64,000 nt of DNA from a virus (lineage: Duplodnaviria > Heunggongvirae > Uroviricota > Caudoviricetes), in the IMG/VR virus record IMGVR_UViG_3300029305_011675. The stretch is one strand, 5' to 3'. The position numbers and the translations under genes are program-made. Shown piece by piece: positions 4,521 to 48,307 of this stretch (position 1 is the stretch's first letter; every line of letters starts with the position of its first letter). Under the pieces are notes generated by a model that was given only the letters and a program-made list of their open reading frames with translations, did no database searches and had not been told where the DNA came from.

Positions 4521-5519
4521 ATGAAAATTTTAACTTCCCGAAAAGGTTTTACACTTATCGAGTTACTTGTGGTAATCGGAATTCTTGCTGTGTTGGCGGC
4601 AATTGCTATTCCTTCCGTTGCTGGACTTATCGACAGAGCAAATGTATCTGCGGATAACACCAATGCCAGTGAAATGACGAATGCGATGGAAAGGTTTGTA
4701 AGCGAATACGAATTATATAAGCAGGATATCGCATCTGGTGCAATCAAAGATGGAGACGGTGATGGAGTTCCTGATAATATGGATGCCGCACAAGGCAGAG
4801 TATATAATGTTACCAAAGCAGTAACCCGTGCTGATATTGAAAAACTCGAAAGTTTGGCAGGTTTCAACGGCATTCGCATCGATATTGATAATAAGTATGC
4901 ACAAAACCATGAAACCGCAAAAGCAGTTATGCAGAATTATATGAAGACCAGTTCTTCCACTTTCGAACCAAAGCAAAGCGACATGACTTATTGGTACAAT
5001 ACTGTAACGGGTTATACACTTGTTGCAGAAAAGAATATCGACACTTCCACTTTATCTGATTTATTACCTTCCAATATCAATTATTCACATACAAAAACTT
5101 CTCTAAATGAATGGATTGATTTATCTTCGGATACTAAAATACCAAATATTTCAATTATAGAAAATTCCTATATTGGAAAAGAAAATGGACTTTACTATAC
5201 AAAATATGACATGGTGCTTGTAAAAGAGGAAGGCATAAATGTTGATTTTGACAAAATATATATTATATATCATAGCGAAAATCATGGAGCGCTCAATATC
5301 AATACCGCCGCATCAAAAATCTTATTAAAAGACAGAATTGATGCAGGAGATTTTGCTTCGTTACAGAATCCCGACAAAAAAGTTGTTAACTTCAGCATCA
5401 CATATAGCACATCAAATGAAAATATAAATAAATATTTTAGATTAGTTTATGAATATGAAGAAAATGGTCAAACAAGATATGCCTATACATCAACTGTTGT
5501 AACTCCAATCACCCAATAA
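4521..5519 (+). CDS. Type IV pilin / pseudopilin-like protein, paralog of 469..1776
   Basis: N-terminus MKILTSRKG|FTLIELLVVIGILAVLAAIAIPSVAGLIDRANVSAD... is nearly identical to the first pilin over ~60 aa and similar over ~170 aa (it ends KTSSSTFEPKQSD). The C-terminal half is unrelated. Confidence 0.75.
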   Translation: MKILTSRKGFTLIELLVVIGILAVLAAIAIPSVAGLIDRANVSADNTNASEMTNAMERFVSEYELYKQDIASGAIKDGDGDGVPDNMDAAQGRVYNVTKAVTRADIEKLESLAGFNGIRIDIDNKYAQNHETAKAVMQNYMKTSSSTFEPKQSDMTYWYNTVTGYTLVAEKNIDTSTLSDLLPSNINYSHTKTSLNEWIDLSSDTKIPNISIIENSYIGKENGLYYTKYDMVLVKEEGINVDFDKIYIIYHSENHGALNINTAASKILLKDRIDAGDFASLQNPDKKVVNFSITYSTSNENINKYFRLVYEYEENGQTRYAYTSTVVTPITQ

Positions 5520-5596
5520 AAATGCAAAAAACCAGTTGACAAACCAAATTGTTTATGATATAATAAACGAGAAATCTAAACAAGGAGGTTATACCA

Positions 5597-6043
5597 ATGA
5601 GCATTCAAGAAACTGCAAAGCAGAATATGTATGCCGCTATGAAGGCGCACGACAAGCAGAAGAAAGATGCCTATGCAATGCTTTACGACCAACTTAAGAA
5701 GAAAGAAATCGACCTCCGTCACCCACTTACGGACGACGAGGAGATTGCCGTAGTCACAAAGATGGTCAAGCAGTGCAAGGACAGCATTGATTCTGTGCCA
5801 GAAGGCAAAGGTGGAGAATTCATTGAGAAGGTAAAATTCGAAATGGAAATCTATTCACAATTCCTTCCAACTTTGATGACCGAAGATGAAATCGTCGTTG
5901 TCATCAAGGAAACGATGGCAGAGTGTGGCATCGAAACTCTTGATAACAAGTCTCGTGGTTTGCTTATGAAGAACCTTATGCCAAAGGTTAAGGGCAAAGC
6001 AGATGGCAAACTCGTAGCAGACACCGTTAACAAGATGATGTAA
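5597..6043 (+). CDS. yqeY: GatB/YqeY domain-containing protein
   Basis: 148 aa. The pattern MS..E.....AMKA.DK..........LKKKE....H.LTDDE...V..K.VKQ....D......G matches the YqeY family. RBS aaggagg is present. Confidence 0.7.
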   Translation: MSIQETAKQNMYAAMKAHDKQKKDAYAMLYDQLKKKEIDLRHPLTDDEEIAVVTKMVKQCKDSIDSVPEGKGGEFIEKVKFEMEIYSQFLPTLMTEDEIVVVIKETMAECGIETLDNKSRGLLMKNLMPKVKGKADGKLVADTVNKMM

Positions 6044-6044
6044 T

Positions 6045-6135
6045 TGTAAAATAGAAACTTAAACCGAAACATAGAAACTTATTCTGAAACATAGGAAAGT
6101 TCTCTAAAAGTAGGTTTGAAACTTATTCCGAAACA
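6045..6135 (+). repeat. Tn7R-like end: four contiguous ~20-bp putative TnsB-binding repeats (consensus gaaactta-n4-gaaaca)
   Basis: Sites at 6053-6071, 6073-6091, 6093-6110 (degenerate) and 6117-6135, preceded by a terminal 8 bp tgtaaaat. Confidence 0.75.
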
Positions 6136-6164
6136 AATGTAAATAATCATTTAATCTAAAACAA

Positions 6165-6200
6165 AAAATCCCTCTCGTAATGAGAGGGATTTTATTTTTT
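6165..6200 (+). terminator. Rho-independent terminator just inside the transposon end
   Basis: atccctctcgtaatgagagggat + tttatttttt. Confidence 0.75.
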
Positions 6201-6443
6201 AATTATAAAAAACACATTCAATACTTGACTTTTTCAGAAAAAGTTTATATATTCTATATTATTGTTGAAAATTTTACACAAGGTTGGAGAAAGCACTCCG
6301 CACTTTAAAAGCAAATCTGTCATTCTTATTGTATCAAAAAAACATATAAATCAGTCAAAATTTATATTTTCCAGTATGCTTTTCTATAATATAAAACAAA
6401 TATGTGCAATAATTTATACAAAAATTAAGAAGGTGGTGAATCT

Positions 6444-6737
6444 GTGATGCAAATTAAATGTTTTATAAATGACAATTTTCGAACACTCTCTTATCTTTAT
6501 GATATTAAAGGTGAGGATAATCGTGCCCGTATCACACAACAAGAGGTGGCTGACGCTCTTGGAATTAGTCGCTCTACGCTAAACAAAATTATGAATGAAC
6601 TGAAAAAAGAAGGTTATGTCGAACAAGATGGTAACTATATGGGTCGCTATATTGTTACGAATGCAGCCATTTCAGTTATCGAGACATTTAGAAGTATTGA
6701 TAAAAACGATAGAGGAGGCACTTATGACAGAAATTAA
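6444..6737 (+). CDS. Small HTH transcriptional regulator
   Basis: 97 aa. ITQQEVADALGISRSTLNKIMNELKKEGYV is a classic helix-turn-helix. RBS aaggtgg. Overlaps the start of the next gene by 14 nt. Confidence 0.65.
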   Translation: MMQIKCFINDNFRTLSYLYDIKGEDNRARITQQEVADALGISRSTLNKIMNELKKEGYVEQDGNYMGRYIVTNAAISVIETFRSIDKNDRGGTYDRN

Positions 6738-9384
6738 CATAAACAAACTGAAAAATTTCAAGACGATTACTTGTGATGAATACTTGGAAGTATATAAAGA
6801 AGAGATTATACCTGACAGCGAAAAAATATTTGTTAGAGACTTTTTGTTTGCGATTTTAGGTGAAGACAAAATGCCTATGGTAATTCCACAATATCCCTTT
6901 ATTGATAGTGAGGGAAAATCAAGAAGAATAGATTTCGGTATTATCACACCTGAAGGACATAAAATTGCATTCGAAATCAATGGAGAAACCTACCATAAAG
7001 AAGGCATTATACCATCTGCTCAATTTGACGATAATTTGTTTAGGCAAAATGAAATTTTATTTCACGGTTGGATTTTAAGAAGGTATTCCTATGCACAACT
7101 ATTAGACCCATCTTGGAGAAGCCGTGTTGCGAGCGAAATACGACTAACCCTAAAAGTTTATGCACCAGAACTACTTCCACCAACCAAAATTGAACCAAAT
7201 GCAATTCAAGAAGAAGTTCTGGTTGCATTAAAAAATAAACGTGCATTAGGTTGGGGAAAAGGATTAGTTATAATGCCAACAGGTACAGGTAAAACATATT
7301 TATCGGCATTAGACGCTCTTCAATACAATAACAAAAATCCAGATGCAAAAATATTGTTTGTGGTTCATAGATTAGAAATTCTATCTCAATCCAAGGAAGC
7401 ATATAGAGATGTTTGGGGAGATGTAAAAACGGGTTTTTTGGGTGGTGGTACATCCGAGAATTTGCACGATTGCAAAATTCTCTTTGCATCCAAGGACTCC
7501 CTTTGTAAAGACGAAACCTTGCGACAATTTAACCCAAAATCATTCAATTATATAGTTGTTGATGAAGTTCATCATGGTGAAAGTAAAACATATAAAAAAA
7601 TTATAAATTATTTTACACCAGAATTTTTGCTTGGTATAACCGCAACACCTGATAGGAAAGATAAAAAAGATATATTAGAATTGTTTGATTATCATAAGGT
7701 AAGTGAGTATACCCTAAATGATGCCATTGAAAAAGGTTTTTTGGTAAGTTATGAATATCATGGACTAAAAGATAATATTGACTATACAAATATTCGTTGG
7801 AACGGTGTAAAATACGATAGTAAAGATTTGGAGAATCATTTAATCATTAACGAGAGAAATAAAATGATTCTTAATAAATATATTGAACTGTGCAATGGCA
7901 ACAAAACCATTGGTTTTTGCGTATCAATTAAACATGCTCAAAGAATGGCGGACTTTTTCAATTCTCACGGAATTTCTGCTGTTGCTATTGTTTCTTCAGT
8001 AGAAAATAATAAAGAGTTGATTAAGAAATTTAGAAATAATGAGTTCGCTGTTGCTTTTACGGTAGATATGTTTAATGAAGGTGTTGATATTCCGAATGTG
8101 CAGTCGCTATTATTTTTAAGACCCACCGAATCAAAAACTGTATTCCTACAACAAATTGGTCGTGGTCTTCGCCTATCTTCAAATAAAGATAAAATAGTTA
8201 TTCTCGACTTTATTGGTAATTACAAACGTGCTAATTTTGTTCGTCAGTATTTAGCAAAAAATGTCAAAGAAAAAACAAAGCAAGGGTCAAATGCATTTGA
8301 AAAATTCGAATATGAATACAATCCCAAATGTGTTGTCAAATTTGATGACGAGGTTCAGCAAATTCTCGATTATCAGGATGAACAAAATCACAATATTAAC
8401 GAAGATGACTTAATAGATGCATACTTCGACTTAAAAACTAAAATTGGTCGAAAACCAACAATGGAAGATATTAATACCGATGGTAAATATAAAACCAGCA
8501 AATATGCTTCGGTGTTTGGTAGTTGGTTTCAATTCTTAACAAAAATCGGAGAGATAACAGAAAATGGATATCATTATCCACAAGGATTACATATCGGTCA
8601 TATTATGTACATTTTAAAATCTCTGTACGAAAAAGATACTTCTGGATATATGAATGAAAAATTCATTCGTATGAGAGGCGACTTTAGTGATGACAGTAAT
8701 TTAGCCACATTTCAAAGACAAACAAAATATAAATTACAAGGTATGATGGGAATGGGATTAATAACTGATGACAGAAAAAATGGTTTAGATGTTAAGATGC
8801 CAGAATTAACGGAATTAGGCAAACAATTATTTACTATTCTAAAACCCATCATTGATTGTGCTGATTTGTCATTTAAACTCAAATCAAAGGATTACAGTTG
8901 GGAAATGAATGTTGGAGTTTCTATTTTTGTAGAAAACATTAAAACATATCTCAATGATAATGACGAAGCGAGAAAGCAATATCTTAACATTATATTTAAT
9001 TTTGATGCAATCAGACAACTTTTGTGCTTCTTGTATTTTGATAATCGAAAAATGAATATCACAAAATCTGATTGCTATCAATTTTTCATCGAAAGTCTAT
9101 CTGTTAAAAAATATTGTGAAACACAAGGAATTGAGGTTCCGACGTCAGAAGGTGCCAAGCATCGTGTCCCATTTCTTGTTACTTTATTAGAAACGGCTGA
9201 TATCGTCAAAACCGACAGAAGCAACATTTTCATAAACAAAATATTAATCACAGATTTCATGTTTGAAAATCATATTGATGCTTTTACAAAATTATCAGAA
9301 GGAAATCACACTGAAGAGATTAAAGAAACATTTGGCACAGACTTTTTATCTCACATTGAACATATTAAATTGGAGGTACTATAA
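6724..9384 (+). CDS. DUF559-type PD-(D/E)xK nuclease fused to an SF2 DEAD/DEAH helicase; restriction-subunit-like (HsdR-like domain order)
   Basis: The internal ATG has RBS agaggagg. The N-terminal RIDFGIITPEGHKIAFEINGETYH...NEILFHGWILRRY matches DUF559/Vsr-like nucleases. Helicase motif I is MPTGTGKT, motif II VVDEVHH and motif III GITATP. The C-terminal ~400 aa is unassigned. Confidence 0.7.
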   Translation: MTEININKLKNFKTITCDEYLEVYKEEIIPDSEKIFVRDFLFAILGEDKMPMVIPQYPFIDSEGKSRRIDFGIITPEGHKIAFEINGETYHKEGIIPSAQFDDNLFRQNEILFHGWILRRYSYAQLLDPSWRSRVASEIRLTLKVYAPELLPPTKIEPNAIQEEVLVALKNKRALGWGKGLVIMPTGTGKTYLSALDALQYNNKNPDAKILFVVHRLEILSQSKEAYRDVWGDVKTGFLGGGTSENLHDCKILFASKDSLCKDETLRQFNPKSFNYIVVDEVHHGESKTYKKIINYFTPEFLLGITATPDRKDKKDILELFDYHKVSEYTLNDAIEKGFLVSYEYHGLKDNIDYTNIRWNGVKYDSKDLENHLIINERNKMILNKYIELCNGNKTIGFCVSIKHAQRMADFFNSHGISAVAIVSSVENNKELIKKFRNNEFAVAFTVDMFNEGVDIPNVQSLLFLRPTESKTVFLQQIGRGLRLSSNKDKIVILDFIGNYKRANFVRQYLAKNVKEKTKQGSNAFEKFEYEYNPKCVVKFDDEVQQILDYQDEQNHNINEDDLIDAYFDLKTKIGRKPTMEDINTDGKYKTSKYASVFGSWFQFLTKIGEITENGYHYPQGLHIGHIMYILKSLYEKDTSGYMNEKFIRMRGDFSDDSNLATFQRQTKYKLQGMMGMGLITDDRKNGLDVKMPELTELGKQLFTILKPIIDCADLSFKLKSKDYSWEMNVGVSIFVENIKTYLNDNDEARKQYLNIIFNFDAIRQLLCFLYFDNRKMNITKSDCYQFFIESLSVKKYCETQGIEVPTSEGAKHRVPFLVTLLETADIVKTDRSNIFINKILITDFMFENHIDAFTKLSEGNHTEEIKETFGTDFLSHIEHIKLEVL

Positions 9385-9386
9385 AT

Positions 9387-10337
9387 ATGGCTATACATAA
9401 TAAATCTCACAACAATTCTGCACTTATGTCTTTAAATAAAATGAATAAGGACAACATCAAGCATAAGACATCAAAGGACTTTGAGATGCCCGAAAAAAGC
9501 ATTCAACTATTAATGATTCAAGATTGCTTGACTGCATTAAAAGAACTACCAGATAAATCAATCCAATTAATTTGCATTGACCCTCCTTATAATTTGGATT
9601 TGGCAGATTGGGATACATATGATAATTATATGAGTTGGTGTGCTGAATGGTTAAATGAATGTTGGAGAGTTTTGAAAGACGAAGGCAGTTTAGTTGTTTT
9701 TGGTGGCACTCAATTTAGAGATGAAAGAAGCGGCGATTTAACTGAAATTATCTATCATTGTCGCCACAATACTAAATGGAAGTTAGTCAACACAATTGTT
9801 TGGTATTACAAAAATGGAATGTCTGCCCATAGATATTTTGCAAACCGTCATGAGGAAATTATTTGGTTCGTAAAAACCGATAAATATTACTTTGATTTAG
9901 ATTCTGTTAGAGTAAAATATTCAGAAGAAGATTTAAAAAATGCCTTAAAAGATAAGAGACTGAATCCTGAAAATGTTAAAAAAGGCAAAAATCCAACAAA
10001 TGTATGGGAAATAGGTAGATTAAATGGTAATTCGTTAGAAAGAGTTGGACATCCAACCCAAAAACCTTTAGCAGTCATCAGGAGATTAGTTAAAGCATTA
10101 TCATATCCTGGGTCAACCGTCTTGGATTTCTTTGCAGGTAGCGGAACAACAGGTAGAGTGTGTATTGAAGAAGGTAGACACTGTATTCTTATAGATAAAG
10201 GCGAAACAACTACCGATTATTTTAAAAAACATATTGAAAAAATGGAAAAAACAACACTTGCAAAACCCCACCAGTCTGTTGAAACAATTGAAGAATTTTT
10301 CAATTGTGTCGAAGAAGAAACAAATAAAAACAATTAA
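9387..10337 (+). CDS. Beta-class N6-adenine/N4-cytosine DNA methyltransferase
   Basis: Motif IV LICIDPPYN lies upstream of motif I VLDFFAGSGTTG. RBS ggagg. Starts 2 nt after the upstream stop. Confidence 0.8.
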   Translation: MAIHNKSHNNSALMSLNKMNKDNIKHKTSKDFEMPEKSIQLLMIQDCLTALKELPDKSIQLICIDPPYNLDLADWDTYDNYMSWCAEWLNECWRVLKDEGSLVVFGGTQFRDERSGDLTEIIYHCRHNTKWKLVNTIVWYYKNGMSAHRYFANRHEEIIWFVKTDKYYFDLDSVRVKYSEEDLKNALKDKRLNPENVKKGKNPTNVWEIGRLNGNSLERVGHPTQKPLAVIRRLVKALSYPGSTVLDFFAGSGTTGRVCIEEGRHCILIDKGETTTDYFKKHIEKMEKTTLAKPHQSVETIEEFFNCVEEETNKNN

Positions 10338-10661
10338 CACCTTAACTTATTACTGCGAATTTTAAGTTAAATACAAACAAAAATATGGAGTCCGCAATAT
10401 CGGACTCTAAACCAAATATAAAAAAGAAGCCCGCTACTGCGAATAGCGGACTTCCGTATAACAACACTAAAATTAACATTTGTATGACTACCAATCTAAC
10501 AAAAGTGTTTTTTAATGCTGCTTTCTTATTATAGCATTTTCTTATCTAAATGTCAACTCATTTTTGTTAGAAATTCAGTATTCTTATACTTTTGTTAATT
10601 TTGACTAATCTCGTTCCTGCTCGGAACACAAAAATATTAAAATATGATAGGAGTAGATATT

Positions 10662-12812
10662 ATGGATAATATAATGCTAACCGTTGGTAATGTTATTATA
10701 GATGAGCATAGTGGCAAACAATATCGAGTTGTTGCAGTTGTAAACAATGATATTACTTTATGCGAGATGAATACTACGAAGTTTTTACTCTCGTTAATGA
10801 ATAAACAAACCTTGTTCGCACTTGTGGCAACAGGTGAATTAATAATCAAAGTCGAACCACCCATCGTTTTCAACAAGGATGACTTACCAGAGGGTTTTCA
10901 GAAAAAATTCACAATAAGACAACAGATAATGAATGAGGTCCTCAAGGAATATGGACCATCTTATATTGAACTAAACGGTAAAAAACGAGGCAGGACAGTC
11001 AAGGATATAATGAGTAAATATAACTTGGCAAGATGTTCTTTCTGGAGAATATGTACTCAATATTTTCAAAGTGGTCTTCAAGATTATTCGTTAGTTGATT
11101 CGAGATATTTTGGTGCAAATACTGGCAAGACATATAATTATGAGACCAAAACTGGTCGCCCACCAGAATACTCTATGGCATCGGGAATTATTATCACCGA
11201 TGAAATTATCAAGCATTTTGAAGAAGCATTGAAAGATTATAAGTCTGGAAGACACAAATCCATCAAGGATGCTTTTGACAAAATGAATTTGTTGCATTTT
11301 ACAAAAACAGAAATAATTAACGGTCAACCCAGTATTGTTTTATTGCCCATATCAGAAAGACCAACACTCGACCAATTTAGATACTATTGCAACAAACATC
11401 TTACAAACCAAGAAAAAGACTTAATAAAAACATCTGCACTCGAACAAAAGAATAACAAAAGACTTCTTGTAAGCGATTCACTCAATGGTGTAAATGGACC
11501 TGGTGATTTGGTAGAAATCGATGCTTGCGAAGCAGATATATCGTTGGTTTCTGTTATTGACTCATCAAAAACTATCGGCAGACCGATAGTGTACTTTATG
11601 GTTGATGTATACTCTCGCATTATCTTGGCAGTGTCTGTTGCTTTTGATAATAACTCTATGCTTGGTTTATCAAACTTATTTCTAAACCTTGCAGATGATA
11701 AACAGAAGTATTGTGAGAGATACGGAATTAGTTATGAAAACAAAGATATTTGGCCATCAAACATTATTCCCAATCGTGTTCGTGTTGACAAAGGTGCTGA
11801 ATTTAGAAGCAAAGAGTTTGAGAGAATCTGCAATGAACTTGGTATTGAAAGAAATATCGTATTGCCAGGGTGTGGTTCTCTCAAAGGTATTGTAGAGCAG
11901 TCATTTAGACAATTACATCTCAAACAAAATCATCATCTTGAAAATCATGGTCTCATTACCCAAAGACACGATTCCAAACATCATCAAGAGGCGATGTTGA
12001 ATATTGAAGAATATACTAAAATGGTTATTGGTTTTGTTCTAACTCACAACCAACAATGCTTAACAAATTTCCCACTCACAAAAGATATGATTTTGAAGAA
12101 GGTTCAACCCATTCCTGCTTTGTTGTGGAAATATGGCATAAACAACGGTTTCACACCGAGACCAATCCCTTCGCTGCAACAATATCTATTCAATCTTATG
12201 ACACCTATCAATGCCAAAGTAAGCAGAAAAGGTATCAGTCATAAGGAATTATATTATCTAAACACAGAAGATAAAAAACTTGCTCGTGAGATGTTTGATG
12301 CTGGCAACAAAAGAAAAGATTTTGAAGCAAGAATGGATATGAGAGATGTTGGTTCGATTTATTATATCAGAGATAATAAGTTAATGGTCGCCAGACTTAA
12401 CCCGCTAATTCAAGGGAATGCGGAATATGCTGGTATGACGATGAAGGAATACGAAGATTTCCGCAAGGGTAAAAAAGAACTTCTCGCAGCAGGCAAGGTT
12501 AATAACGAAGAATTGTCTGCATTCAATTATGCGATGAACAATGCTATTGTTGAAGAAGCGACAAAACCAATGTTACCTTCTGCAAAAGATATGAGACCTG
12601 CTCGTGAGATTGAAAAGCAGGCAAAATCTAAATCTAATAAAATCAGCAAAAGATTAGAACAACCTAAACTCGAAGCACCAAAAACGGAAGATGTTTTGGT
12701 AGAAGAGTTTATTGAAAAAATAACCGAATGTCCTCCTGCAGAGGAAGTCCCAGTAAAGAAAAATAAGTTAAACACATATAGCAATTGGGACGAAGCATTG
12801 GAAGATTGGTAA
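10662..12812 (+). CDS. tnsB: Tn7 TnsB-like / Mu-type DDE transposase
   Basis: About 717 aa. The core matches TnsB/TniA integrases, e.g. IVYFMVDVYSRIILAVSVAFDNNS and RVRVDKGAEFRS. RBS taggag. Confidence 0.75.
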   Translation: MDNIMLTVGNVIIDEHSGKQYRVVAVVNNDITLCEMNTTKFLLSLMNKQTLFALVATGELIIKVEPPIVFNKDDLPEGFQKKFTIRQQIMNEVLKEYGPSYIELNGKKRGRTVKDIMSKYNLARCSFWRICTQYFQSGLQDYSLVDSRYFGANTGKTYNYETKTGRPPEYSMASGIIITDEIIKHFEEALKDYKSGRHKSIKDAFDKMNLLHFTKTEIINGQPSIVLLPISERPTLDQFRYYCNKHLTNQEKDLIKTSALEQKNNKRLLVSDSLNGVNGPGDLVEIDACEADISLVSVIDSSKTIGRPIVYFMVDVYSRIILAVSVAFDNNSMLGLSNLFLNLADDKQKYCERYGISYENKDIWPSNIIPNRVRVDKGAEFRSKEFERICNELGIERNIVLPGCGSLKGIVEQSFRQLHLKQNHHLENHGLITQRHDSKHHQEAMLNIEEYTKMVIGFVLTHNQQCLTNFPLTKDMILKKVQPIPALLWKYGINNGFTPRPIPSLQQYLFNLMTPINAKVSRKGISHKELYYLNTEDKKLAREMFDAGNKRKDFEARMDMRDVGSIYYIRDNKLMVARLNPLIQGNAEYAGMTMKEYEDFRKGKKELLAAGKVNNEELSAFNYAMNNAIVEEATKPMLPSAKDMRPAREIEKQAKSKSNKISKRLEQPKLEAPKTEDVLVEEFIEKITECPPAEEVPVKKNKLNTYSNWDEALEDW

Positions 12813-12825
12813 GGAGGTATTCGAT

Positions 12826-14433
12826 ATGGATATAAAATATAATTATTACGAATGTGAAAAATTCGAGACACAATATGAAGATTATGATTTTGAAGAAAAC
12901 AAAATCGTAAATGCCAGATATGTTAAGGCACTTGTTGAATGTGATATCGGTAACCCATACATAGAGGCATTGCCACATCCGAGACACGAAGATGATGTAA
13001 GAGATGCATACACAAAACATCTTTTAACATACGACTACGATAAGGTCAAAAATATGACCAAATTAGAAAAGATGTTGCAAGTTAGCACTTTAAGGCAGAT
13101 AAGATTTCCTCTTACATTCCACAAGAATTTGGAATTTTCATTCTATAATGCTTTAATTACATCTTATAGGTCAAGGAAAATCAAACCCATAAACGATAAA
13201 CCAATTGAATATATTTCAAACGATATAGAGACAGAAACCAACTGTGTTTTATATGGTAATTCTGCCGATTCTACAAATGCAGGATTCTCTCTCATAGGTT
13301 ATTCTGGTTGTGGCAAAAGTTCCGCAATCCAAACATTGCTTTCGCATTATCCACAAACCATTATACATCGTGTAGATGAGTTTACACAATATGTCCAGAT
13401 TGTTTATTTGGTTGTAAACTGTGTACCCAATAGTAATTTCTCTGCATTATATGAAGGCATTGGCGATGCTGTTGATAAGGCGCTCGGCAATACTCAACCT
13501 GTTTATGCAAAAGAGATTGCAAAAACAACCACACTTGGCAGAAAAATGGAGAAGGTTCGTGAGTTAATAGAAAGATTTGGTATCGGAATGATTATCTTTG
13601 ATGAGATACAACTCATAGATTTTGATAGAACAAAAGAAAGTTCTTTTGAATCTTTAATGACTTTATCTAACAGAACAAAAGTCGCTATCGCTGTTGTAGG
13701 TACAGAAGATGCCAGAGACAAAATGTTTAAGGAATTAAGAACCACAAGAAGAATTGGAACAGTAATCAACGGTAATATGTATTGTGAGAACAAAATGTTT
13801 TTTACATTCCTTGTCACTCAACTATTTAACTATCAATGGTTTGATGAACCAATTGATGTAACAGAGGAACTTGTAGATGCCCTCTACGATGTCACCAAAG
13901 GCATTGTGGACCAACTTATAGGAATATACTCCTGTATGCATTACGACTATTTAGAGCGAAAGAAACGCCCCGTAATCGATGCGAAATATGTCTATGATAT
14001 AGCACAAAGATATTACCCAGGAATTCAGAATGTTCTTGCGGATTTGGAATCAATTGAAGCGGCAAGAAAACTTATGGGCATCAGACAAGATGCAGAAGTT
14101 AGAGTCGCTTCTATCATTGATAATGCAAAGCAGGAAAAAGAAGCAGAAGACTTGTTACAAAAACAAAATAAAGCAGTCGATAAAATGCTAATGTTGAAAA
14201 ATATTGTAGCAAATATCACTGCCCTATATGATGAATATTCTCTTTCTCAAATTGAAAAGGCATTTAATTTAGTTATAAAACAGACCAAAGACAATCCTAA
14301 ATCCGAAAGAGAAATGAGTCGTTTGGTTCTTGATAAACTTACTCACAGAAGAAATACCAAATCTGCAGATAAAAAGAAAAAGTCGAGTATCCCAGAAATG
14401 GATACAACGACTATGAGAGATTTTATTGGATAA
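12826..14433 (+). CDS. tnsC: TnsC-like AAA+ ATPase (transposition regulator)
   Basis: Walker A is GYSGCGKSS and Walker B is GMIIFDEIQ. It sits immediately downstream of tnsB, with RBS aaggagg. Confidence 0.75.
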   Translation: MDIKYNYYECEKFETQYEDYDFEENKIVNARYVKALVECDIGNPYIEALPHPRHEDDVRDAYTKHLLTYDYDKVKNMTKLEKMLQVSTLRQIRFPLTFHKNLEFSFYNALITSYRSRKIKPINDKPIEYISNDIETETNCVLYGNSADSTNAGFSLIGYSGCGKSSAIQTLLSHYPQTIIHRVDEFTQYVQIVYLVVNCVPNSNFSALYEGIGDAVDKALGNTQPVYAKEIAKTTTLGRKMEKVRELIERFGIGMIIFDEIQLIDFDRTKESSFESLMTLSNRTKVAIAVVGTEDARDKMFKELRTTRRIGTVINGNMYCENKMFFTFLVTQLFNYQWFDEPIDVTEELVDALYDVTKGIVDQLIGIYSCMHYDYLERKKRPVIDAKYVYDIAQRYYPGIQNVLADLESIEAARKLMGIRQDAEVRVASIIDNAKQEKEAEDLLQKQNKAVDKMLMLKNIVANITALYDEYSLSQIEKAFNLVIKQTKDNPKSEREMSRLVLDKLTHRRNTKSADKKKKSSIPEMDTTTMRDFIG

Positions 14434-14448
14434 TAGGAGGAATAAAGT

Positions 14449-16575
14449 ATGAATAAATTCATTCCTATGATTGTTGCCCCTTACCCAGACGAATTCTTAT
14501 ATTCTTGGGTAATGAGATTAGCAAACGCCAATAAACTTTCCGTTCCTCTGTTTTTTGAAACCTATTTCGGTAAAGAATACTTTAGCAAGTTTTTACTTCC
14601 CATAGATATTAGAAAAGGTTTTGGTTCATTCTATAATTTTCTTAATTGTACAACCCCTGTTTCAGAATTATATTTAAGTTTATCTACTCTACAATTTGAA
14701 TTATTGTCTTATCCACCCAAGATGCAGACAAAGTTCATAAATCCTATTTTCAGAAAAGAAAATAACATATATACCATAAAAGAATATTTAATGACAGATT
14801 TCCGTATGTGTAAAGAATGTATGAAGGAAGATAAGGAATTATTCGGAGAAACTTACATTCATCGTTCTCATCAGTTAAATGGTGTTTGTGTTTGTCATAA
14901 ACATCACACCCCATTATTTATTCAAAAAAGGAATTCGAAATACATTTACAAAGATGAAACTTTGGAACAAATGGAGTTAGCAGACACTTTTGAAAAAGAG
15001 TGCGAATATGCTGATTATACCCATTTTCTGTTAGAAAACAATTTTCAATCTAATTCTAATGATTTAATGAAAATCATAATCGATAAATTAGGGATATTAG
15101 AATCAAATAAAAAGGAATTGGTCATAAAAATAAACGAAATACTCAAAAATGGCAAAACTTATTCCAAAGAAAGTTTGTGGTCTAAAAACGATTGTAACTT
15201 TCCAATAAAAGATTTTATTAAAGTATTGATGTATGCATACCCAAATCCAAAAGACATATTAGTAAAAGCGAAGAAATTTTCTCTAATCATTGAACAAAAA
15301 TGTGATAAGTGCGGTAAGACTTTTTACACAACAGAACAAGCACTTAAAGATGGATGGGGTTGTACATTTTGTGATGATAAACTTAAAGAAATAGATTTGA
15401 TAAAGAGATTGATTAAAATTGGTGGAAACGGAGAATATGTTTTCAAAGGTTTCCTACCAACTAAAACTAAAAACAGCATACGTCTATTCCATAAACCTTG
15501 TGGCGAAGAACACCTTACCAGTTTAAATAACTTCGTTTTTAATCACAAAAGATGCAAGTGTGGTATAAAAATGCAAAGAAAAGAAGCAGAAAAAGAGATG
15601 AAAAAACACCCACAATTCAAGTTGGTTGAATTTAACGGTGCTACATTTCCTGCAAAGTTCCGTCACAATGATTGTGGTAGAGAGTTTGAATATAAATCAT
15701 TCAGATGGTTTTTAAAATGGCCTAAATGTCCTCATTGTCAAGGATTTACAAAAGAAAATCTTGAACAAGAAATAAGGGATGTTGTTGGGGATGAATATAC
15801 GGTTTGTGATATTGGTTCTATTCGTAAAGATAAAGTCACCATTAGGCACAACATTTGTGGATGCGCACACGAATATGTGCCATACAATTTTCTTATTGGT
15901 GCCAGATGTCCCAAATGCTACAATCAAGTGTCGTTAAGGGAATTGAAAATAATGTTAAAAGAATATTCTGATGATAGATATGAAATTGTAGGAAAAAGAA
16001 AAGAAAAATGTATTATATATGACAAGGAAACAGACGAAACCATTGAGTTGACAAATAGACATATATTGCAAGAGATTAAAAGACCAACACCATCTTCCTT
16101 ATTACCTGTAAAAAATCGCAAATCCATTCAAAGTCCTTTGTCAACTTGGGATTTTTGGTATCAACTTTGTATTGAATACAAAAACGAGTTTGGACATCTG
16201 TGTCCAGTGATGAATGAAACATACAAAGGATATAATCTATATAGTTGGTTGATTGTAACCAGACAATATTACAGAAAAGGACAACTTTCACAAGAAAAGA
16301 TACAAGCACTTAAAGATATAGATTTTGTATTCGATACTGCATTTTATAAGTGGGAACAAAGGTTTAATGAATATAAAGTATTTGTTAATGAAACAGGAAA
16401 TTATTTTCCTTCAGTCAAAGAAATACACAATGGAAATAAAGTGGGTCAGTGGTTTTTAAGGCAACGAAAAGCGAAAAACAGAGGTAGTTTAAAACCAAAG
16501 TATGAAAAAATATTATTGGAATATTATTCAGATTTTTTTAAAAAACATCCAAGATACAAAAACAATACCATTTAA
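14449..16575 (+). CDS. tniQ: TniQ/TnsD-like target-selector protein
   Basis: The N-terminus MIVAPYPDEFLYSWVMRLANAN is the TniQ signature. Multiple CxxC/CxxH zinc-finger clusters. 708 aa, closer in size to TnsD. Confidence 0.7.
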   Translation: MNKFIPMIVAPYPDEFLYSWVMRLANANKLSVPLFFETYFGKEYFSKFLLPIDIRKGFGSFYNFLNCTTPVSELYLSLSTLQFELLSYPPKMQTKFINPIFRKENNIYTIKEYLMTDFRMCKECMKEDKELFGETYIHRSHQLNGVCVCHKHHTPLFIQKRNSKYIYKDETLEQMELADTFEKECEYADYTHFLLENNFQSNSNDLMKIIIDKLGILESNKKELVIKINEILKNGKTYSKESLWSKNDCNFPIKDFIKVLMYAYPNPKDILVKAKKFSLIIEQKCDKCGKTFYTTEQALKDGWGCTFCDDKLKEIDLIKRLIKIGGNGEYVFKGFLPTKTKNSIRLFHKPCGEEHLTSLNNFVFNHKRCKCGIKMQRKEAEKEMKKHPQFKLVEFNGATFPAKFRHNDCGREFEYKSFRWFLKWPKCPHCQGFTKENLEQEIRDVVGDEYTVCDIGSIRKDKVTIRHNICGCAHEYVPYNFLIGARCPKCYNQVSLRELKIMLKEYSDDRYEIVGKRKEKCIIYDKETDETIELTNRHILQEIKRPTPSSLLPVKNRKSIQSPLSTWDFWYQLCIEYKNEFGHLCPVMNETYKGYNLYSWLIVTRQYYRKGQLSQEKIQALKDIDFVFDTAFYKWEQRFNEYKVFVNETGNYFPSVKEIHNGNKVGQWFLRQRKAKNRGSLKPKYEKILLEYYSDFFKKHPRYKNNTI

Positions 16576-16658
16576 TTAAGAGTTTGGCGATAAAAAGAAA
16601 CTCGTTATTTTGATAAAAAAACAGGGGTGCCTTTTTTAATTGCTTTAATTCAATTCTA

Positions 16659-16687
16659 TTGACAGAATGGCATATTTATGTTATAAT
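16659..16687 (+). promoter_or_regulatory. Sigma-A promoter TTGACA-17-TGTTATAAT for the cargo ORFs
   Basis: ttgacagaatggcatatttatgttataat, followed by a ~120-nt leader that contains a 15-bp long-range helix (16716-16731 pairing with 16778-16792). Confidence 0.6.
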
Positions 16688-16809
16688 AAAATTAGAATTC
16701 CGCAAGTTTTAACTACTTATTCTTTTGAAGATTAACCTGAAGTAGAGGTTATAACTGGATTTCCACACACACGAATCTCTTCAAAAAATAAGAAACGAGG
16801 TTAAAAAAT

Positions 16810-17247
16810 ATGTTATTTGAATATGATTATTGCGGAATTATGTTTAGAAATCCTTTTGCATATGATAATAAACAAAATTATCATTGCGCGACAATGCTGT
16901 TAAATGCATTGTCATCGTATATTACCACATATCGTCCAAAGGAAGAACACACAAGCGAAAGTATTTACAAATTGCTTGTCGCCAATTCAGAACAAAGACA
17001 CATTGGTGATTCTCCTTTTGCTATCAATGGAAAAGGTAGTCTTTTAGATGCAATTTTTGAAGAACTCCGAATGAAAGTTCCCTGTTGTATCGAATTAGAA
17101 TATTATAAAATATTTAAAGCATTTCCATTGAAACAACAACTTTCAGTTATTGCCACCTTGATGGCAGAAAATTTTGGTTTAAGAGAAAAGGCAATCGAGA
17201 ATTTTCTTAAAAAATCAAAAGACCCGTTTGTAACAAACAAAGAATAA
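16810..17247 (+). CDS. Hypothetical protein (transposon cargo)
   Basis: 145 aa. RBS gaaacgagg. No recognisable motif. Confidence 0.5.
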   Translation: MLFEYDYCGIMFRNPFAYDNKQNYHCATMLLNALSSYITTYRPKEEHTSESIYKLLVANSEQRHIGDSPFAINGKGSLLDAIFEELRMKVPCCIELEYYKIFKAFPLKQQLSVIATLMAENFGLREKAIENFLKKSKDPFVTNKE

Positions 17248-17308
17248 AATTAATGGCATACGATTGGTTGTGTGTGCAATCGTATGCTATTTTTTAGGAG
17301 AATTAGTT

Positions 17309-18241
17309 ATGAGAGAAAATTTAAAACAACTTATAGGCGAAGAAATTAGTGGTGTAGCAAAGTGTGTCAGAAATGGACATCGTTGCCTATTGAGAGATAT
17401 CGTAGTAGACGACTCTTGTTCTTTTGACCCAGACTTATATTTAGCAATAGAACAACACTTGTGGACAGATTCTAATGTTATTGAGAAAAACAATATAAAA
17501 CGATATTCTTATTTTCGTTTCGCTGGCTCTGTATATGAGTATAAAAGAGAAAACGACACAACAGATTATTCTATCGAATTAAAAGAAGTTGAACCGATTG
17601 ATACTTTTAAGTATTTAAAAAGCAGAATTCAGCAATGCTATTGTAGACATGTGTGTTTATTTTTTGAACACTGCTATTATAACTGCTGTGCACCACAATC
17701 AGAAAAAGATAATTTTGTTATTCCTGTATTAGAAAAGATGTTTTTAGAAGAAGCAGTCAACGATTTTGCAGAAGAATATGAATTTTCACCAAAGGATTTT
17801 CTAAAAGAAATCAGGAACAAAACTCTATTTAAAATTAGTGATGCACATATTTATCTTGGTATGAATAAGGCAGATTTTATCAAAAGATATAAGTCCAACA
17901 TTATTGAGGGCAATGAGTTTGGATATAAAATGAAACCTATTGAAGTAGATAAAATCTTCTTAACTCCAGTTATTCATTTTATGAAAAACGGGATGTGCGA
18001 TGCAATTGCATTTGAGACTAATCAAGATAATTTAAATACTGCAATTCAATATATAAATAAAAAGTATAACACAAATGTTACACTTTTTAATCACAAAGAA
18101 TTGATTGACTTATTCAAAGCAGAGATGGAATTTGGAGATATTATTTTTGGTTATTCAAAAGCACAAGAAAATCATCCTGCTTCCATTGTTATGAGTTTGT
18201 CAACACCAATATCGACATATTTCTCGGTTGGCTTACAATAA
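17309..18241 (+). CDS. Hypothetical protein (transposon cargo)
   Basis: The internal ATG has RBS taggag. 310 aa, Cys-containing, no recognisable motif. Confidence 0.5.
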   Translation: MRENLKQLIGEEISGVAKCVRNGHRCLLRDIVVDDSCSFDPDLYLAIEQHLWTDSNVIEKNNIKRYSYFRFAGSVYEYKRENDTTDYSIELKEVEPIDTFKYLKSRIQQCYCRHVCLFFEHCYYNCCAPQSEKDNFVIPVLEKMFLEEAVNDFAEEYEFSPKDFLKEIRNKTLFKISDAHIYLGMNKADFIKRYKSNIIEGNEFGYKMKPIEVDKIFLTPVIHFMKNGMCDAIAFETNQDNLNTAIQYINKKYNTNVTLFNHKELIDLFKAEMEFGDIIFGYSKAQENHPASIVMSLSTPISTYFSVGLQ

Positions 18242-18303
18242 AATATTTTTATATAAACGGAAACTTATAAAAATAAAAAACAATTTATAACACTATTAAG
18301 TTT

Positions 18304-18439
18304 TGTTTCAAAACAAGTTTCACAACATTGTAACTATCAAAGACATTATATTGCTTTGTTTTATAATAAGTTTCTAATAAATCACGAAGAAAACTATGAA
18401 AAAGCATAGTTCTGTTTCAAAATAAGTTTATAATCAACA
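18304..18439 (-). repeat. Tn7L-like end: three spaced inverted copies of the ~20-bp repeat plus the terminal 8 bp
   Basis: tgtttcaaaacaagtttcac (18304-18323), tgttttataataagtttct (18358-18376) and tgtttcaaaataagtttat (18413-18431). Each is the reverse complement of gaaactt...gaaaca. The element ends ...atcaaca at 18439. Confidence 0.75.
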
Positions 18440-18480
18440 GTAATTGTTAAATGACAATTTAATTTGAAACTAAAATTAAG

Positions 18481-18513
18481 AAACCCCGCATAACGATGCG
18501 GGGTTTCTTGTCG
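18481..18513 (+). terminator. Rho-independent terminator (native yqeY terminator displaced by the insertion)
   Basis: aaaccccgcataacgatgcggggtttcttg. Confidence 0.75.
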
Positions 18514-18672
18514 TATTGGCAATATTTTTTTGAAATAAAAAAACATATTTTATATAATCAAATTGTCCATTATTAAGAATATATTAAGGAGGGATTATGT
18601 TTTATCTTCTGCATATTGTAATGGACAAAAATAATCATTTAACTATAAAAATTTTAGGAGGAAACTAAAAAA

Positions 18673-19236
18673 ATGAAGAAAGTTGTATCTTGTATCTTGG
18701 TTGTTGTATGTATTATGTTCCTGTTTACTGCTTGTGACGCTCCCAGCGGTAGCACTGTAGACAAGACAAATACCAAGGAAATCGCAAACAAATTGCAGAC
18801 CAATCAACCTACCCCTACCGACATTGACTATTCCCTTGAGCGCTACAACCTCATTCGTCGTGCTTACTGGGTAAACGGTCAGAGAGATAAGGCAGATGCT
18901 GTTCCTTGTGCAGTAGAAAAGCCTTTGGGTTATATTGTGCTTTTCACTGAAAGTGGTGCAGTTGTCGGCAAGTTTGTTGTAGATGGTAAGGTAAGTAGTC
19001 TCAACAGTTATTTGACACCCGATAGTGAATATTTCGAAATTTCTTCTGGCAGTACCTATAAGAACGAATGGCTCACCGATGTCGATGGTTCTTATGGAGA
19101 AAATGACAGTGGTATTTTCTTCTTTGACACTATGGGCAATTACATTGAATGGACTGGCACTTATCTGTATACCGATATTCCTATGACTATCGAGAATCCT
19201 GTAATCAATTTTGATGTAACTTATGAGGAGGACTAA
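18673..19236 (+). CDS. Lipoprotein, hypothetical
   Basis: The signal peptide ends in the lipobox LFTAC. RBS aggagg. Confidence 0.6.
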   Translation: MKKVVSCILVVVCIMFLFTACDAPSGSTVDKTNTKEIANKLQTNQPTPTDIDYSLERYNLIRRAYWVNGQRDKADAVPCAVEKPLGYIVLFTESGAVVGKFVVDGKVSSLNSYLTPDSEYFEISSGSTYKNEWLTDVDGSYGENDSGIFFFDTMGNYIEWTGTYLYTDIPMTIENPVINFDVTYEED

Positions 19237-19239
19237 AAA

Positions 19240-19629
19240 ATGAATAAGACTTTAACTGTGATTATTTCCGTCGTTGTTGCTCTCGTCCTGTTTTGTGCCA
19301 TTTTCTTTGGCGCTACTCCCGCAGGCAGAGAAGTGTGGAATGGTTGGTTCAATAAGGTTCAGAAGGCCGATGATAATACCAACTATGAAACCATCAAGAA
19401 GGTAGAAGATACCTGCCGTGCTATGATTGCAAATTATGAAGCAGACAAACTGACCTACGAACAGTATAAGGACAGTGATGATGAAGAAAAGCAGTCTTGG
19501 GCGGAACAGGCAAAAATGCGTGCAAATAAAACCGCATCTTCTTACAACAATTACATCTTGCAGAACAGTCACGTATGGAAAGACAATGTCCCTGCTGACA
19601 TTTTATCCAAACTTCCGTACATCGAATAA
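19240..19629 (+). CDS. Membrane-anchored hypothetical protein
   Basis: N-terminal TM helix. RBS gaggagg. 3 nt after the previous stop. Confidence 0.55.
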   Translation: MNKTLTVIISVVVALVLFCAIFFGATPAGREVWNGWFNKVQKADDNTNYETIKKVEDTCRAMIANYEADKLTYEQYKDSDDEEKQSWAEQAKMRANKTASSYNNYILQNSHVWKDNVPADILSKLPYIE

Positions 19630-19643
19630 AGTGACAATTTGGT

Positions 19644-29286: not shown

Positions 29287-29676
29287 TCAAAGAATATCCC
29301 GCAAAAGTTTTTGTTTCTTTATAAGTTCTTCCCTAATATCCTTAATTTCCTCTGCAATTTTCTCCTGCAGTTTACTCCGATACTTTTCTACATCATCGGA
29401 ATAACTCCACATGCCATATTTACCAACTCTGGCAAATGGACTATCTACCCGCACAATTTCGTATTCGCTATTAAGAGTTGGTCGCAACGAAAAAACATCG
29501 TCAATTAACTTCATGATTTCCTGTTTCTCTTTACATTCATATAAACGAGAACTTAACGACAGATAAATAGCATCTTTCCAATCTGGAATCTCGATTTCAA
29601 TTTCTTTTCTCTGAATTTCGTTGTTTTCGACCCAAAAAAGATAAACCTTCTTGTAAGTATAAGTGTATTTTGCCAT
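29287..29676 (-). CDS. Hypothetical protein
   Basis: Start MAKYTYTYKK with RBS agagagga. Terminator hairpin tagacggtctg..cagaccgtcta at ~29255-29285. Confidence 0.55.
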   Translation of the reverse strand: MAKYTYTYKKVYLFWVENNEIQRKEIEIEIPDWKDAIYLSLSSRLYECKEKQEIMKLIDDVFSLRPTLNSEYEIVRVDSPFARVGKYGMWSYSDDVEKYRSKLQEKIAEEIKDIREELIKKQKLLRDIL

Positions 29677-41756: not shown

Positions 41757-41811
41757 GCTTTTTTCATTTCTTTCATATATAATTAAGAAATAACTCAATA
41801 GGAGGGTGTTT

Positions 41812-42522
41812 ATGGGAAATATTTTAGTTTTAGGTGATTGTTTGGAAAATATGAAAAAGATGCAGTCTAAAACAGTCGATTGTGTCATAACGGATATTCC
41901 ATATTTTCAAGTTGTTGATGACGATTGGGATAATCAATGGAAAAATAGCGAAGAATATTTGGAATTTATACATAATTGCATTAAAGAATTCGATAGAATT
42001 ACGAAAGATGATGCTTCAATTATTATGTTTACAGGAAGACAATACAACCGTCACATTGCATTGCTTTTAGATAAATATTTTGAAGAAAGAAGAATAATTA
42101 TCTGGAGCAGAAAAAGAGCATTTAATAATACTCGTGGCAAAGCACTTGCTTCTGGTTATGAACCAATTTGCTATTACACAAAGGGCAATCCTGTTTTTAA
42201 CAACATAAAAATCCAATCCGAATCCAAAAGAAAAGAGTACACAGAGGGAACACTGAAAGATGGTGTCTCTCTTTCGGATGTGTGGAGCGATATCCCAGCA
42301 TTACCGCATAACTCAAAAGAAAAAGTAAAACACTCGTCCCAAAAACCAATTGCTTTAATGGAAAGATGTGTTTTACTTTGCAGTAAAGAAAATGATACGG
42401 TTTTAGACCCTTTTATGGGTAGTGGTTCTACTGGTGTTGCTTGTAAAAACTTAAATAGAACATTTATTGGCATTGAAGCAAACAAAGAACATTTTGAGTT
42501 AGCAAAACACAGAATCCACTAA
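41812..42522 (+). CDS. Orphan beta-class N6A/N4C DNA methyltransferase
   Basis: Motif IV CVITDIPYF, then motif I LDPFMGSGSTGVAC. RBS aggagggtg. Confidence 0.8.
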   Translation: MGNILVLGDCLENMKKMQSKTVDCVITDIPYFQVVDDDWDNQWKNSEEYLEFIHNCIKEFDRITKDDASIIMFTGRQYNRHIALLLDKYFEERRIIIWSRKRAFNNTRGKALASGYEPICYYTKGNPVFNNIKIQSESKRKEYTEGTLKDGVSLSDVWSDIPALPHNSKEKVKHSSQKPIALMERCVLLCSKENDTVLDPFMGSGSTGVACKNLNRTFIGIEANKEHFELAKHRIH

Positions 42523-47872: not shown

Positions 47873-48307
47873 TTATTCGAGTGCATCTGGGATTCCATCA
47901 CCATCGGTATCTCCGCAAATATGGTCAACATCGTCAGCACTTACCATGCCAGAACCAACCATTTCACGACCCGCCACTCCACGTTCTCTTCTACGCTTTT
48001 CAACTAATTCGCTAATAAAGTGATGGACATCTTTCGGTTTTTTAATATTTTTAAGTTCCAATACTCTATCTGTTTGGTCTGCAGAATACAATGTAACTGT
48101 TCCTACTCCAAAAATTTTCTGCCAAAAAGTTCTTTTTGTTTTGATATCCAAAATTCTGTATAAAAGAATTTCGTCAGAATTTGTTGTGAAGAAACCCTTA
48201 TCTAAATAAAGTCTCTCTTCGTCAACTGCATACTTTGTAAAAGAAATTGGCATCCCCATGTGTCTCTTTCTGTCTTTCCATAAAATTGATTTTTCACATT
48301 TGCTCAT
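47873..48307 (-). CDS. Bacterial PH (bPH_2/YdbT-like) domain protein
   Basis: DEILLYRILDIKTKRTFWQKIFGVGTV fits the bPH_2 pattern. Overlaps the 3' end of the C5-MTase gene by 14 nt. Confidence 0.45.
   Translation of the reverse strand: MSKCEKSILWKDRKRHMGMPISFTKYAVDEERLYLDKGFFTTNSDEILLYRILDIKTKRTFWQKIFGVGTVTLYSADQTDRVLELKNIKKPKDVHHFISELVEKRRRERGVAGREMVGSGMVSADDVDHICGDTDGDGIPDALE

Follow-up and report, generated by a model that had tools for sequence, protein, structure and literature searches.

A TnsA-less Tn7-like transposon inserted at the 3' end of yqeY in a gut Lachnospiraceae-type bacterium

INTRODUCTION

The Tn7 transposon of Escherichia coli, which carries the genes tnsABCDE, is directed by its TnsD pathway to the site attTn7 downstream of glmS; TnsD binds the coding DNA of glmS, and insertion takes place at a fixed distance downstream, with the Tn7R end proximal. 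In this study, we analyzed a 12,395-bp element that occupies positions 6045 to 18439 of a 64,000-nucleotide (nt) stretch of DNA (IMG/VR record IMGVR_UViG_3300029305_011675; hereafter, the window) and lies at the 3' end of the host gene yqeY. All coordinates are window positions unless a contig is named, and the L numbers (L002, L015, etc.) are labels of comparison contigs from other public assemblies and metagenomes. The element resembles Tn7 in several respects: (i) it has TGT...ACA tips and a 5-bp duplication; (ii) the best solved-structure matches of its TnsB and TnsC are the Tn7 proteins; (iii) its R end is compact and stands beside the recognized gene, while its L end is dispersed; (iv) its transposition genes are directed away from the R end; and (v) a conserved coding block lies at a fixed distance of a few tens of base pairs from the point of insertion, and the gene whose 3' end is used is of an essential type. 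It differs from Tn7 in having neither tnsA nor tnsE, in its selector (a TniQ with Cys-rich repeats and two HA domains) and target (yqeY), in the approximately 4.5 kb of cargo between the R end and tnsB, and in an R end of three strong sites and one degenerate site, where Tn7 has four overlapping sites.

The absence of tnsA has precedents among relatives of Tn7. The gene was found in 92% of the Tn7 clade of Benler et al. (10.1101/2021.08.23.457393), who describe that losing TnsA function turns Tn7 transposition replicative and that tnsA-less branches usually gain a resolvase, while resolvase-less ones can use RecA. Type V-K and Tn5053 elements are likewise Tn7-like, work without TnsA, and, according to the literature, hence make cointegrates; however, V-K elements depend on Cas12k and guide RNAs, Tn5053 has the resolvase TniR and targets res sites, and the TnsB proteins of both are distant from that of the window. 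A TnsA-encoding (TnsA+) sister clade from Lachnospiraceae and related Bacillota (L007 to L014, L022, L023, L027, and L028) has TnsB 47 to 58% and TnsC 57 to 58% identical to those of the window (the latter computed for L022 and L023). It shares with the window element a TniQ with HA domains and an R end in which two abutting sites are followed, after a spacer, by a third, but differs from it in a tnsA gene that overlaps the start of tnsB, in the lack of the winged helix-turn-helix (wHTH) gene, small-RNA region, and R-side cargo described below, and in its target, TniQ (28 to 29% identity), and end motifs.

RESULTS

The ends of the element are delimited by asymmetric arrays of approximately 20-bp repeats, which are predicted TnsB sites and whose motif is all but restricted to these ends. 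The sequence starts TGTAAAATAG at the left terminus and ends ATAATCAACA at the right. A 17-nt end motif, AAACTTANNNNGAAACA, occurs with zero or one mismatch on the plus strand at 6055, 6075, and 6119 and on the minus strand at 18304, 18357, and 18413, and the first transposase-type site at each end begins 7 nt from the tip. A preliminary description of this DNA, made from the sequence alone, had given these element coordinates and the flanking GTAAT pentamers at 6040 to 6044 and 18440 to 18444, all of which proved exact on re-reading; it had also raised the concern that the repeats might be abundant elsewhere, and a single further core match was found in the 64 kb, at 29312. The three inverted core copies that it likened to Tn7L were recovered as well, spaced 53 and 56 bp from start to start. 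Its four contiguous copies at the left end need correction: the R-type array beside yqeY is there, but it consists of three strong sites and one degenerate copy (6092 to 6111, matching the consensus at about 12/20). This R-end arrangement, in which a spacer separates two abutting sites from a third, was found again in relatives, and L015, L018, and L030 have both this layout and the R tip TGTAAAAT of the window element. The perfect direct repeat around the element extends over 8 bp (GTAATTGT) rather than 5 because the native flank also begins with TGT. Perfect 5-bp duplications of four sequences surround five elements of the clade (GTAAT twice, AAAAG, GTTTT, and ATTGT). A boundary further inside the element, suggested by the TGTAAAAT(A) common to empty sites, was considered and rejected, as the L015/L025 pair described below leaves no ambiguity and the R tip TGTAAAAT is found again at unrelated sites.

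Pairs of occupied and empty sites in other assemblies support the Tn7-like identity, base-exact ends, and 5-bp duplication put forward in that description and confirm the predicted boundaries to the base. Two Agathobacter metagenome-assembled genomes (L015 and L017) contain a 13,848-bp element adjoining yqeY, with a TnsB 82% identical to that of the window; at its left junction TTTATGAAAAG is followed directly by TGTAAAATAACAAG, and at its right junction TATGTCAACA is followed by AAAAG and then CCTGAATTAA. L025 and L026, with the same flanking genes and no element, read TTTATGAAAAGCTTGAATTAA, with one AAAAG, and the native YqeY C terminus (...KSLN, seen in several near-identical proteins) is regenerated only under the 5-bp model of the L015/L025 pair. 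Element-free contigs with YqeY identical or near-identical to those of occupied loci (L002, L024, L031, and L036) have GTAAT once only, with TGTAAAATAACA or TGTAAAATGCAAT after it: L002 and L024 encode the YqeY of the window and continue with TGTAAAATAACA, which matches the window's right flank TGTTAAATGACAAT at 12/14 nt, and L031 and L036 encode the YqeY of L030 and read GATGATGTAATTGTAAAATGCAATGTG. The element is thereby polymorphic in presence and absence between otherwise near-identical loci. These loci bear out the single GTAAT of the empty site that had been obtained by in silico removal of the element, but the exact predicted junction gave 0 matches in JGI metagenome contigs, where a degenerate yqeY pattern search returned L024 only. 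The empty site is also less simple than had been supposed: the nucleotides after the duplication resemble the R tip, and insertions and deletions make the stretch downstream of yqeY differ from strain to strain. L030 itself carries, at 4637 to 7626, a 2,990-bp nonautonomous derivative with window-type R and L ends, a GTAAT duplication, and no tns genes, its only contents being a 274-amino-acid (aa) gene without assignment and a 496-aa LRR_5 gene.

The gene content places the element in the Tn7-proper branch. Open reading frames (ORFs) were assigned to families by Pfam, NCBIfam, and PADLOC profile searches, with Pfam gathering thresholds applied, and solved-structure matches were to Tn7 TnsB (7pik) and Tn7 TnsC (8glu), both from E. 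coli. TnsB matches Tn7 TnsB over its full length (E 4.7e-40) and the TnsB proteins of type V-K and I-F elements in the catalytic core only (E 4e-6 on the V-K/Tn5053 side); 16 homologs all conserve its residues D293, D382, and E418, its precomputed annotation includes PF27135 (HTH_TnsB), and its Pfam rve score, 27.8 bits, is below the gathering cutoff of 32.6. TnsC belongs to TniB (PF05621, 40.7 bits; cutoff, 22.4) and AAA_22, has Tn7 TnsC as its sole match among solved structures (E 6.6e-15), and contains the Walker A and Walker B motifs GYSGCGKS and IIFDEIQ, as read from the sequence. TniQ matches PF06527 at residues 6 to 156 (59.2 bits; cutoff, 27; E 9e-16) and HA in two stretches (E 3e-21). 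The order tnsB-tnsC-tniQ and its direction away from the R-like end agree with the preliminary description, but the qualification "as in Tn7" overlooked both the missing tnsA and the approximately 4.5 kb of cargo (wHTH gene, restriction enzyme, and methylase) between the R end and tnsB. In the broad sense, all the features of a Tn7-like element are present, namely TnsB, an adjoining TnsC, TniQ, repeat-array ends, a 5-bp duplication, and site- and orientation-specific insertion; the element falls outside the strict-sense definition by TnsA plus TnsB and outside those of Tn5053/Tn402 and of CRISPR-associated transposons.

In the window, L030, and L015/L017 alike, an element is inserted at the yqeY 3' end with its R end proximal, and the insertion points are within 1 nt of each other. 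The window and L015 represent different bacteria, with YqeY proteins of 148 and 168 aa, respectively; aligned on the yqeY coding block ATGAAGAACCTTATGCCAAAGGTTAAGGGCAAAGCAGATGGCAAACTCGTA, their insertion points are 1 nt apart, and their flanks are identical at 58/85 positions only after a 1-nt shift, the identity being concentrated in this block. TniQ of the window is 93% identical to that of L015 and 38 to 72% identical to those of elements at other sites, for which the values are 60 to 76% for TnsB and 66 to 78% for TnsC (60 to 82% and 66 to 97%, respectively, over all elements compared). The divergence of TniQ follows the change of target site, the pattern expected of a TnsD-like, sequence-specific selector, and the 1-nt difference between the insertion points indicates TnsD-like homing to the conserved yqeY block. 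In the library searched, no paper was found that connects yqeY with Tn7 or its relatives, and yqeY is apparently an unreported attachment site for Tn7-like elements.

No ORF contains a TnsA domain (PF08722/PF08721) by Pfam, and tblastn with TnsA of the sister clade found nothing in the 64-kb window, L015 to L021, or L037. TnsB is no longer than in TnsA+ relatives, and therefore there is no TnsA-TnsB fusion. A tnsA remnant in the 307-bp gap between the methyltransferase gene and tnsB was likewise rejected, as tblastn gave no signal even at E 10 and the gap holds a conserved minus-strand promoter and terminator. Resolvase, integrase, and recombinase domains were found in no ORF of the element by Pfam or NCBIfam. 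The absence extends to the clade: tnsA is missing from every one of the six distinct elements whose TnsB is 60% or more identical to that of the window (the window element, L015/L017, L018, L020, L021, and L037), and each has, between the R end and tnsB, a restriction-modification or methylase/nuclease cassette that differs from element to element. Below this level (TnsB at most 58% identical), a 215- to 223-aa TnsA overlapping the tnsB start is encoded at all loci with readable upstream DNA (11/11), and the same 11 loci have no cargo on the R side of tnsB; the three with an upstream flank examined (L008, L022, and L023) lie downstream of nrdD. The break between the two configurations thus falls between 58 and 60% identity to the window TnsB. 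The element is a TnsA-less variant of the Tn7-proper branch, in a lineage that lost the second transposase subunit, TnsA, and the configuration of this clade is atypical but not unprecedented. One of the TnsA+ sister elements, in L008 (13731 to 17648), has a tandem pair of TniQ-HA paralogs, suggestive of two target pathways, and an OLD-family nuclease gene downstream that is possibly cargo.

A database search yielded 658 TnsB homologs, the bulk of which came from gut and rumen metagenomes and whose single named close relative is Agathobacter. The TnsB search gave no match in phage records and only distant ones in plasmid records, where the full-length matches listed are 26 to 29% identical; among viral contigs, it gave two relatives only, both TnsA+. 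The host of the element is a gut Lachnospiraceae-type bacterium. The coordinates of all features are compiled in Table 1.

Table 1. Features of the yqeY locus and of the element inserted in it
Feature	Position	Strand	Remarks
yqeY (host gene)	5597-6043	+	GatB/YqeY-domain protein, 148 aa; Pfam PF09424, E 1e-30; 3' end is the attachment site
Conserved yqeY coding block	5966-6016	+	ATGAAGAACCTTATGCCAAAGGTTAAGGGCAAAGCAGATGGCAAACTCGTA; 29 to 79 bp from R tip; putative TniQ recognition sequence
Target-site duplication, left copy	6040-6044		GTAAT; contains yqeY stop codon; single copy in empty L002, L024, L031, and L036
R-type end	6045-6135	+	Tip TGTAAAA; sites 6052-6071, 6072-6091, 6092-6111 (degenerate), 6116-6135
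Bidirectional terminator-like hairpin	6165-6193		Inside R end; 13-bp stem, T-runs on both strands
Winged-helix regulator (wHTH)	6447-6737	+	96 aa from ATG; Pfam HTH_24, HTH_Crp_2, MarR_2
Restriction-type enzyme, SF2 helicase	6724-9384	+	886 aa from M37; 922 aa from first ATG at 6616
N6/N4 DNA methyltransferase	9387-10337	+	316 aa; Pfam N6_N4_Mtase, E 9e-62; PADLOC MTase_II, E 2e-106
Candidate small RNA	10415-10556	-	About 100 nt, divergent from tnsB; promoter 10556-10528, terminator 10455-10425
tnsB	10644-12812	+	DDE transposase; 722 aa, or 716 aa from M7
tnsC	12826-14433	+	AAA+ regulator; 535 aa
tniQ (tnsD-type target selector)	14449-16575	+	708 aa; N-terminal TniQ, Cys-rich repeats, two C-terminal HA domains
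orf145	16810-17247	+	Cargo; no Pfam, NCBIfam, or PADLOC match
orf325	17264-18241	+	Cargo; no Pfam, NCBIfam, or PADLOC match
L-type end	18304-18439	-	Inverted sites 18304-18323, 18357-18376, 18413-18432; tip ...ATCAACA
Target-site duplication, right copy	18440-18444		GTAAT; read from sequence
Native yqeY-distal flank	18445-18509	+	TGTTAAATGACAAT; homologous to flank of element-free strains; GC-rich hairpin 18478-18509

We class the wHTH gene, the restriction enzyme/methylase pair, and orf145/orf325 as cargo or regulators. The restriction-type enzyme matches Pfam ResIII, Helicase_C, and HNH_repeat and PADLOC mREase_IV (E 6e-77), and its N-terminal approximately 190 residues were assigned by eye as a putative nuclease. 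Ahead of orf145/orf325 is a consensus promoter (16659 to 16687); the two genes are missing from the sister elements and are therefore not core. Homologs of the wHTH regulator, 38 to 62% identical, occupy the same position in L015, L017, L020, L021, and L037, such that the gene is present in five of the six distinct TnsA-less elements, and occur in no TnsA+ locus. The idea that the regulator is a leftover C-terminal winged helix of TnsA was discarded, the profile-profile comparison giving a probability of 0.9%. Upstream of its gene is a promoter-like site (6225 to 6253), overlapped, within 6225 to 6260, by a near-palindrome, ACTTTTTCAGAAAAAGT, with ACATTTTCAAAAAAATGT in the equivalent place of L015; the near-palindrome is likely an autoregulatory operator. 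The host region encodes two further DNA methyltransferases, at 41806 to 42522 and 48294 to 49502; one is of the N6/N4 type and has 28% identity with the cargo methylase, and the other is a C5 cytosine methylase.

The 307-bp gap between the methyltransferase gene and tnsB contains a unit that is confined to the TnsA-less clade and that we consider, from its sequence features, a candidate regulatory small RNA. Its promoter is a perfect TTGACA-17-TGnTATAAT and is followed about 100 nt on by a terminator with a 14-bp stem and a T-run; L015, L018, L020, L021, and L037 can be aligned with it at the -10 element and the terminator hairpin, and a clear -35 element is seen in L015, L018, and L020 only. 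A five-sequence fold showed compensatory changes in 13/33 predicted pairs. An Rfam search of the gap returned nothing over the gathering score, and complementarity of the RNA to yqeY, to the ends and junctions, and to tnsB was nowhere above noise; blastn-short gave no match to yqeY or the junctions of at least 9 nt, the shortest that it reports.

DISCUSSION

We interpret the element as an intact transposon of the Tn7 family that homes to the yqeY 3' end and, being TnsA-less, moves replicatively with resolution by the host, a reading to which we assign a probability of roughly 85%. The course of transposition can be envisaged as follows: (i) TniQ would settle on the conserved yqeY coding block, approximately 30 to 80 bp from the insertion point; (ii) TniQ would bring in TnsC; (iii) TnsC would place the complex of TnsB and the ends such that the R end lies beside yqeY, with a 5-bp stagger; (iv) TnsB alone would cut the 3' strands only, leading to replicative copy-and-paste through a cointegrate; and (v) homologous recombination of the host would resolve the cointegrate, leaving simple insertions such as those observed. 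The fourth step follows from gene content: since the clade has neither tnsA nor any resolvase, TnsB is expected to cut 3' strands only, and movement should be replicative.

Several points weigh against this interpretation. Transposition is probably replicative with host-mediated resolution, as we infer from the genes present, and no cointegrate structure was seen; the binding of TniQ to positions 5966 to 6016 is similarly deduced from the alignment of insertion sites. In canonical Tn7, the TnsA protein is required for any activity, and TnsB and TnsC of the window are, by solved-structure matches, closest to those of Tn7 itself. The C-terminal tail motif of TnsC, ...MRDFIG, is found in most of the TnsA-less clade and is conserved across both clades; the C-terminal region of Tn7 TnsC contacts TnsA, and the retention of the motif therefore leaves room for TnsA supplied in trans. 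Finally, the approximately 21 contigs with the exact element all have it at the same site and thus do not demonstrate recent movement of this particular copy.

The same points lend some weight to the best of the alternatives, which we nonetheless consider unlikely: that this is a crippled Tn7-like transposon whose tnsA was destroyed by the landing of the restriction-modification cassette and which is now either static and inherited vertically or mobilized only by TnsA that a TnsA+ sister in the same cell provides in trans. The TnsB and TnsC of its nearest solved relative, Tn7, need TnsA; the TnsC tail motif is retained; every copy of the exact element is at one site; samples of this kind are rich in TnsA+ sister elements; and the 3-kb L030 derivative, without tns genes, shows that trans-mobilization or decay in situ does happen. 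However, a crippled element fits poorly with six distinct TnsA-less elements, 60 to 82% identical in TnsB, that all have full-length tnsB, tnsC, and tniQ and that are found at no fewer than four different sites, with perfect duplications around four of them. The shared layout, intact genes, and several sites argue that the lineage still transposed and stayed under selection after the loss of tnsA. Cross-complementation is also made less likely by the distance of the sister TnsB proteins (50 to 58% identical) and by their differing end motifs.

A more far-reaching and distinctly improbable proposal is that the wHTH regulator, the exchangeable cassette, and the small RNA together are a functional replacement of tnsA, in which the RNA and the regulator would couple the expression of cassette and transposase while the restriction-type nuclease or a host factor would perform second-strand processing, making this a new compact three-protein homing system in the Tn7-proper branch. 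The cassettes do occupy the slot in which the sister elements have tnsA. Their variation in type among clade members argues for exchangeable cargo, not a TnsA substitute, and they are probably stabilizing modules.

The core of tnsB, tnsC, and tniQ without tnsA, the 5-bp duplications, and the multiple terminal repeats are also those of an element of the Tn5053/Tn402 type (TniA-TniB-TniQ-TniR), which targets resolution sites and resolves its own cointegrates. We give this very little credence, as neither a serine or tyrosine resolvase nor a res-like site was found in the element, the target is the end of a chromosomal gene (yqeY) and not a res site, TnsB matches Tn7 over its full length (E 5e-40) but the V-K/Tn5053 side in the core only (E 4e-6), and the nearest relatives are tnsA-tnsB-tnsC-tniQ operons. 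Least credible of all is RNA-guided targeting in the manner of CRISPR-associated transposons, for which a clade-specific promoter and terminator unit adjoining tnsB could supply a guide, but which is opposed by the absence of any cas gene (Pfam, NCBIfam, and PADLOC) or CRISPR array within 6045 to 18439, by the result of blastn-short, in which the RNA had no match of at least 9 nt to yqeY or to the junctions, and by the divergence of TniQ with the change of target site.

Under the interpretation of an intact, homing, TnsA-less transposon, the locus is of interest in several ways. It provides a well-delimited attachment site for Tn7-like elements of abundant gut Firmicutes, and the TnsA+ and TnsA-less elements, adjacent on the TnsB tree, mark a clean and recent evolutionary switch. 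Because Tn7 is inactive without TnsA, this pair of clades is a natural system for how TnsB and TnsC become TnsA independent. The element is, moreover, a candidate compact protein-guided integration system, and it illustrates how transposons carry restriction-modification systems between gut bacteria.

ADDITIONAL OBSERVATIONS ON THE FLANKING REGIONS

The hairpin in the native flank (18478 to 18509) is strong, but a terminator was scored there by the scan on the minus strand only, the T-run of the plus strand being poor; the canonical terminator placed after the right end in the preliminary description (18481 to 18513) is accordingly kept as a hairpin and restricted in direction. In element-free strains, the 8 to 13 nt after GTAAT (TGTAAAATAACA or TGTAAAATGCAAT; e.g., L002, 2431 to 2445, and L031/L036) equal the R tips of the clade, TGTAAAATAG, TGTAAAATAACAAG, and TGTAAAATG. 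The right flank of the window (18445 to 18470) matches its own R end (6045 to 6070) at 18/26 positions, in register, and the right flank of L018 resembles an R end of the L015 type. Most simply, this R-tip-like native flank may be a fossil left by previous insertions there.

The region just after the R-tip-like motif is a hotspot of insertions and deletions. In the window, a two-gene module (18461 to 19640; 187 and 129 aa, both without a family match) lies between the 12-nt repeats AAATGACAATTT and AAGTGACAATTT; the module is missing from element-free L002, and the contigs shown or grouped as similar by the 187-aa protein all carry both module and transposon. In L024, an orphan HEARO (IscB omega-type) RNA lies at 622 to 866, after yqeY-GTAAT-TGTAAAATAACA (Rfam RF02033, 126.6 bits), and in L029, a 418-aa RRXRR+HNH (IscB-like) gene follows yqeY (5843 to 7099), which makes the 3' flank of yqeY a landing site for two unrelated mobile systems. 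Upstream of yqeY, the gyrB gene is interrupted in L029 (1 to 1951) by a GIY-YIG gene and in L030 (113 to 1937) by a LAGLIDADG gene, which look like homing-endonuclease or intron-type insertions. The clade member in L018 (16092 to 18250; TniQ 43% identical), whose target is other than yqeY, ends approximately 100 bp away from a type I-C CRISPR array; the array has some 30 repeats, and cas genes lie on its far side.

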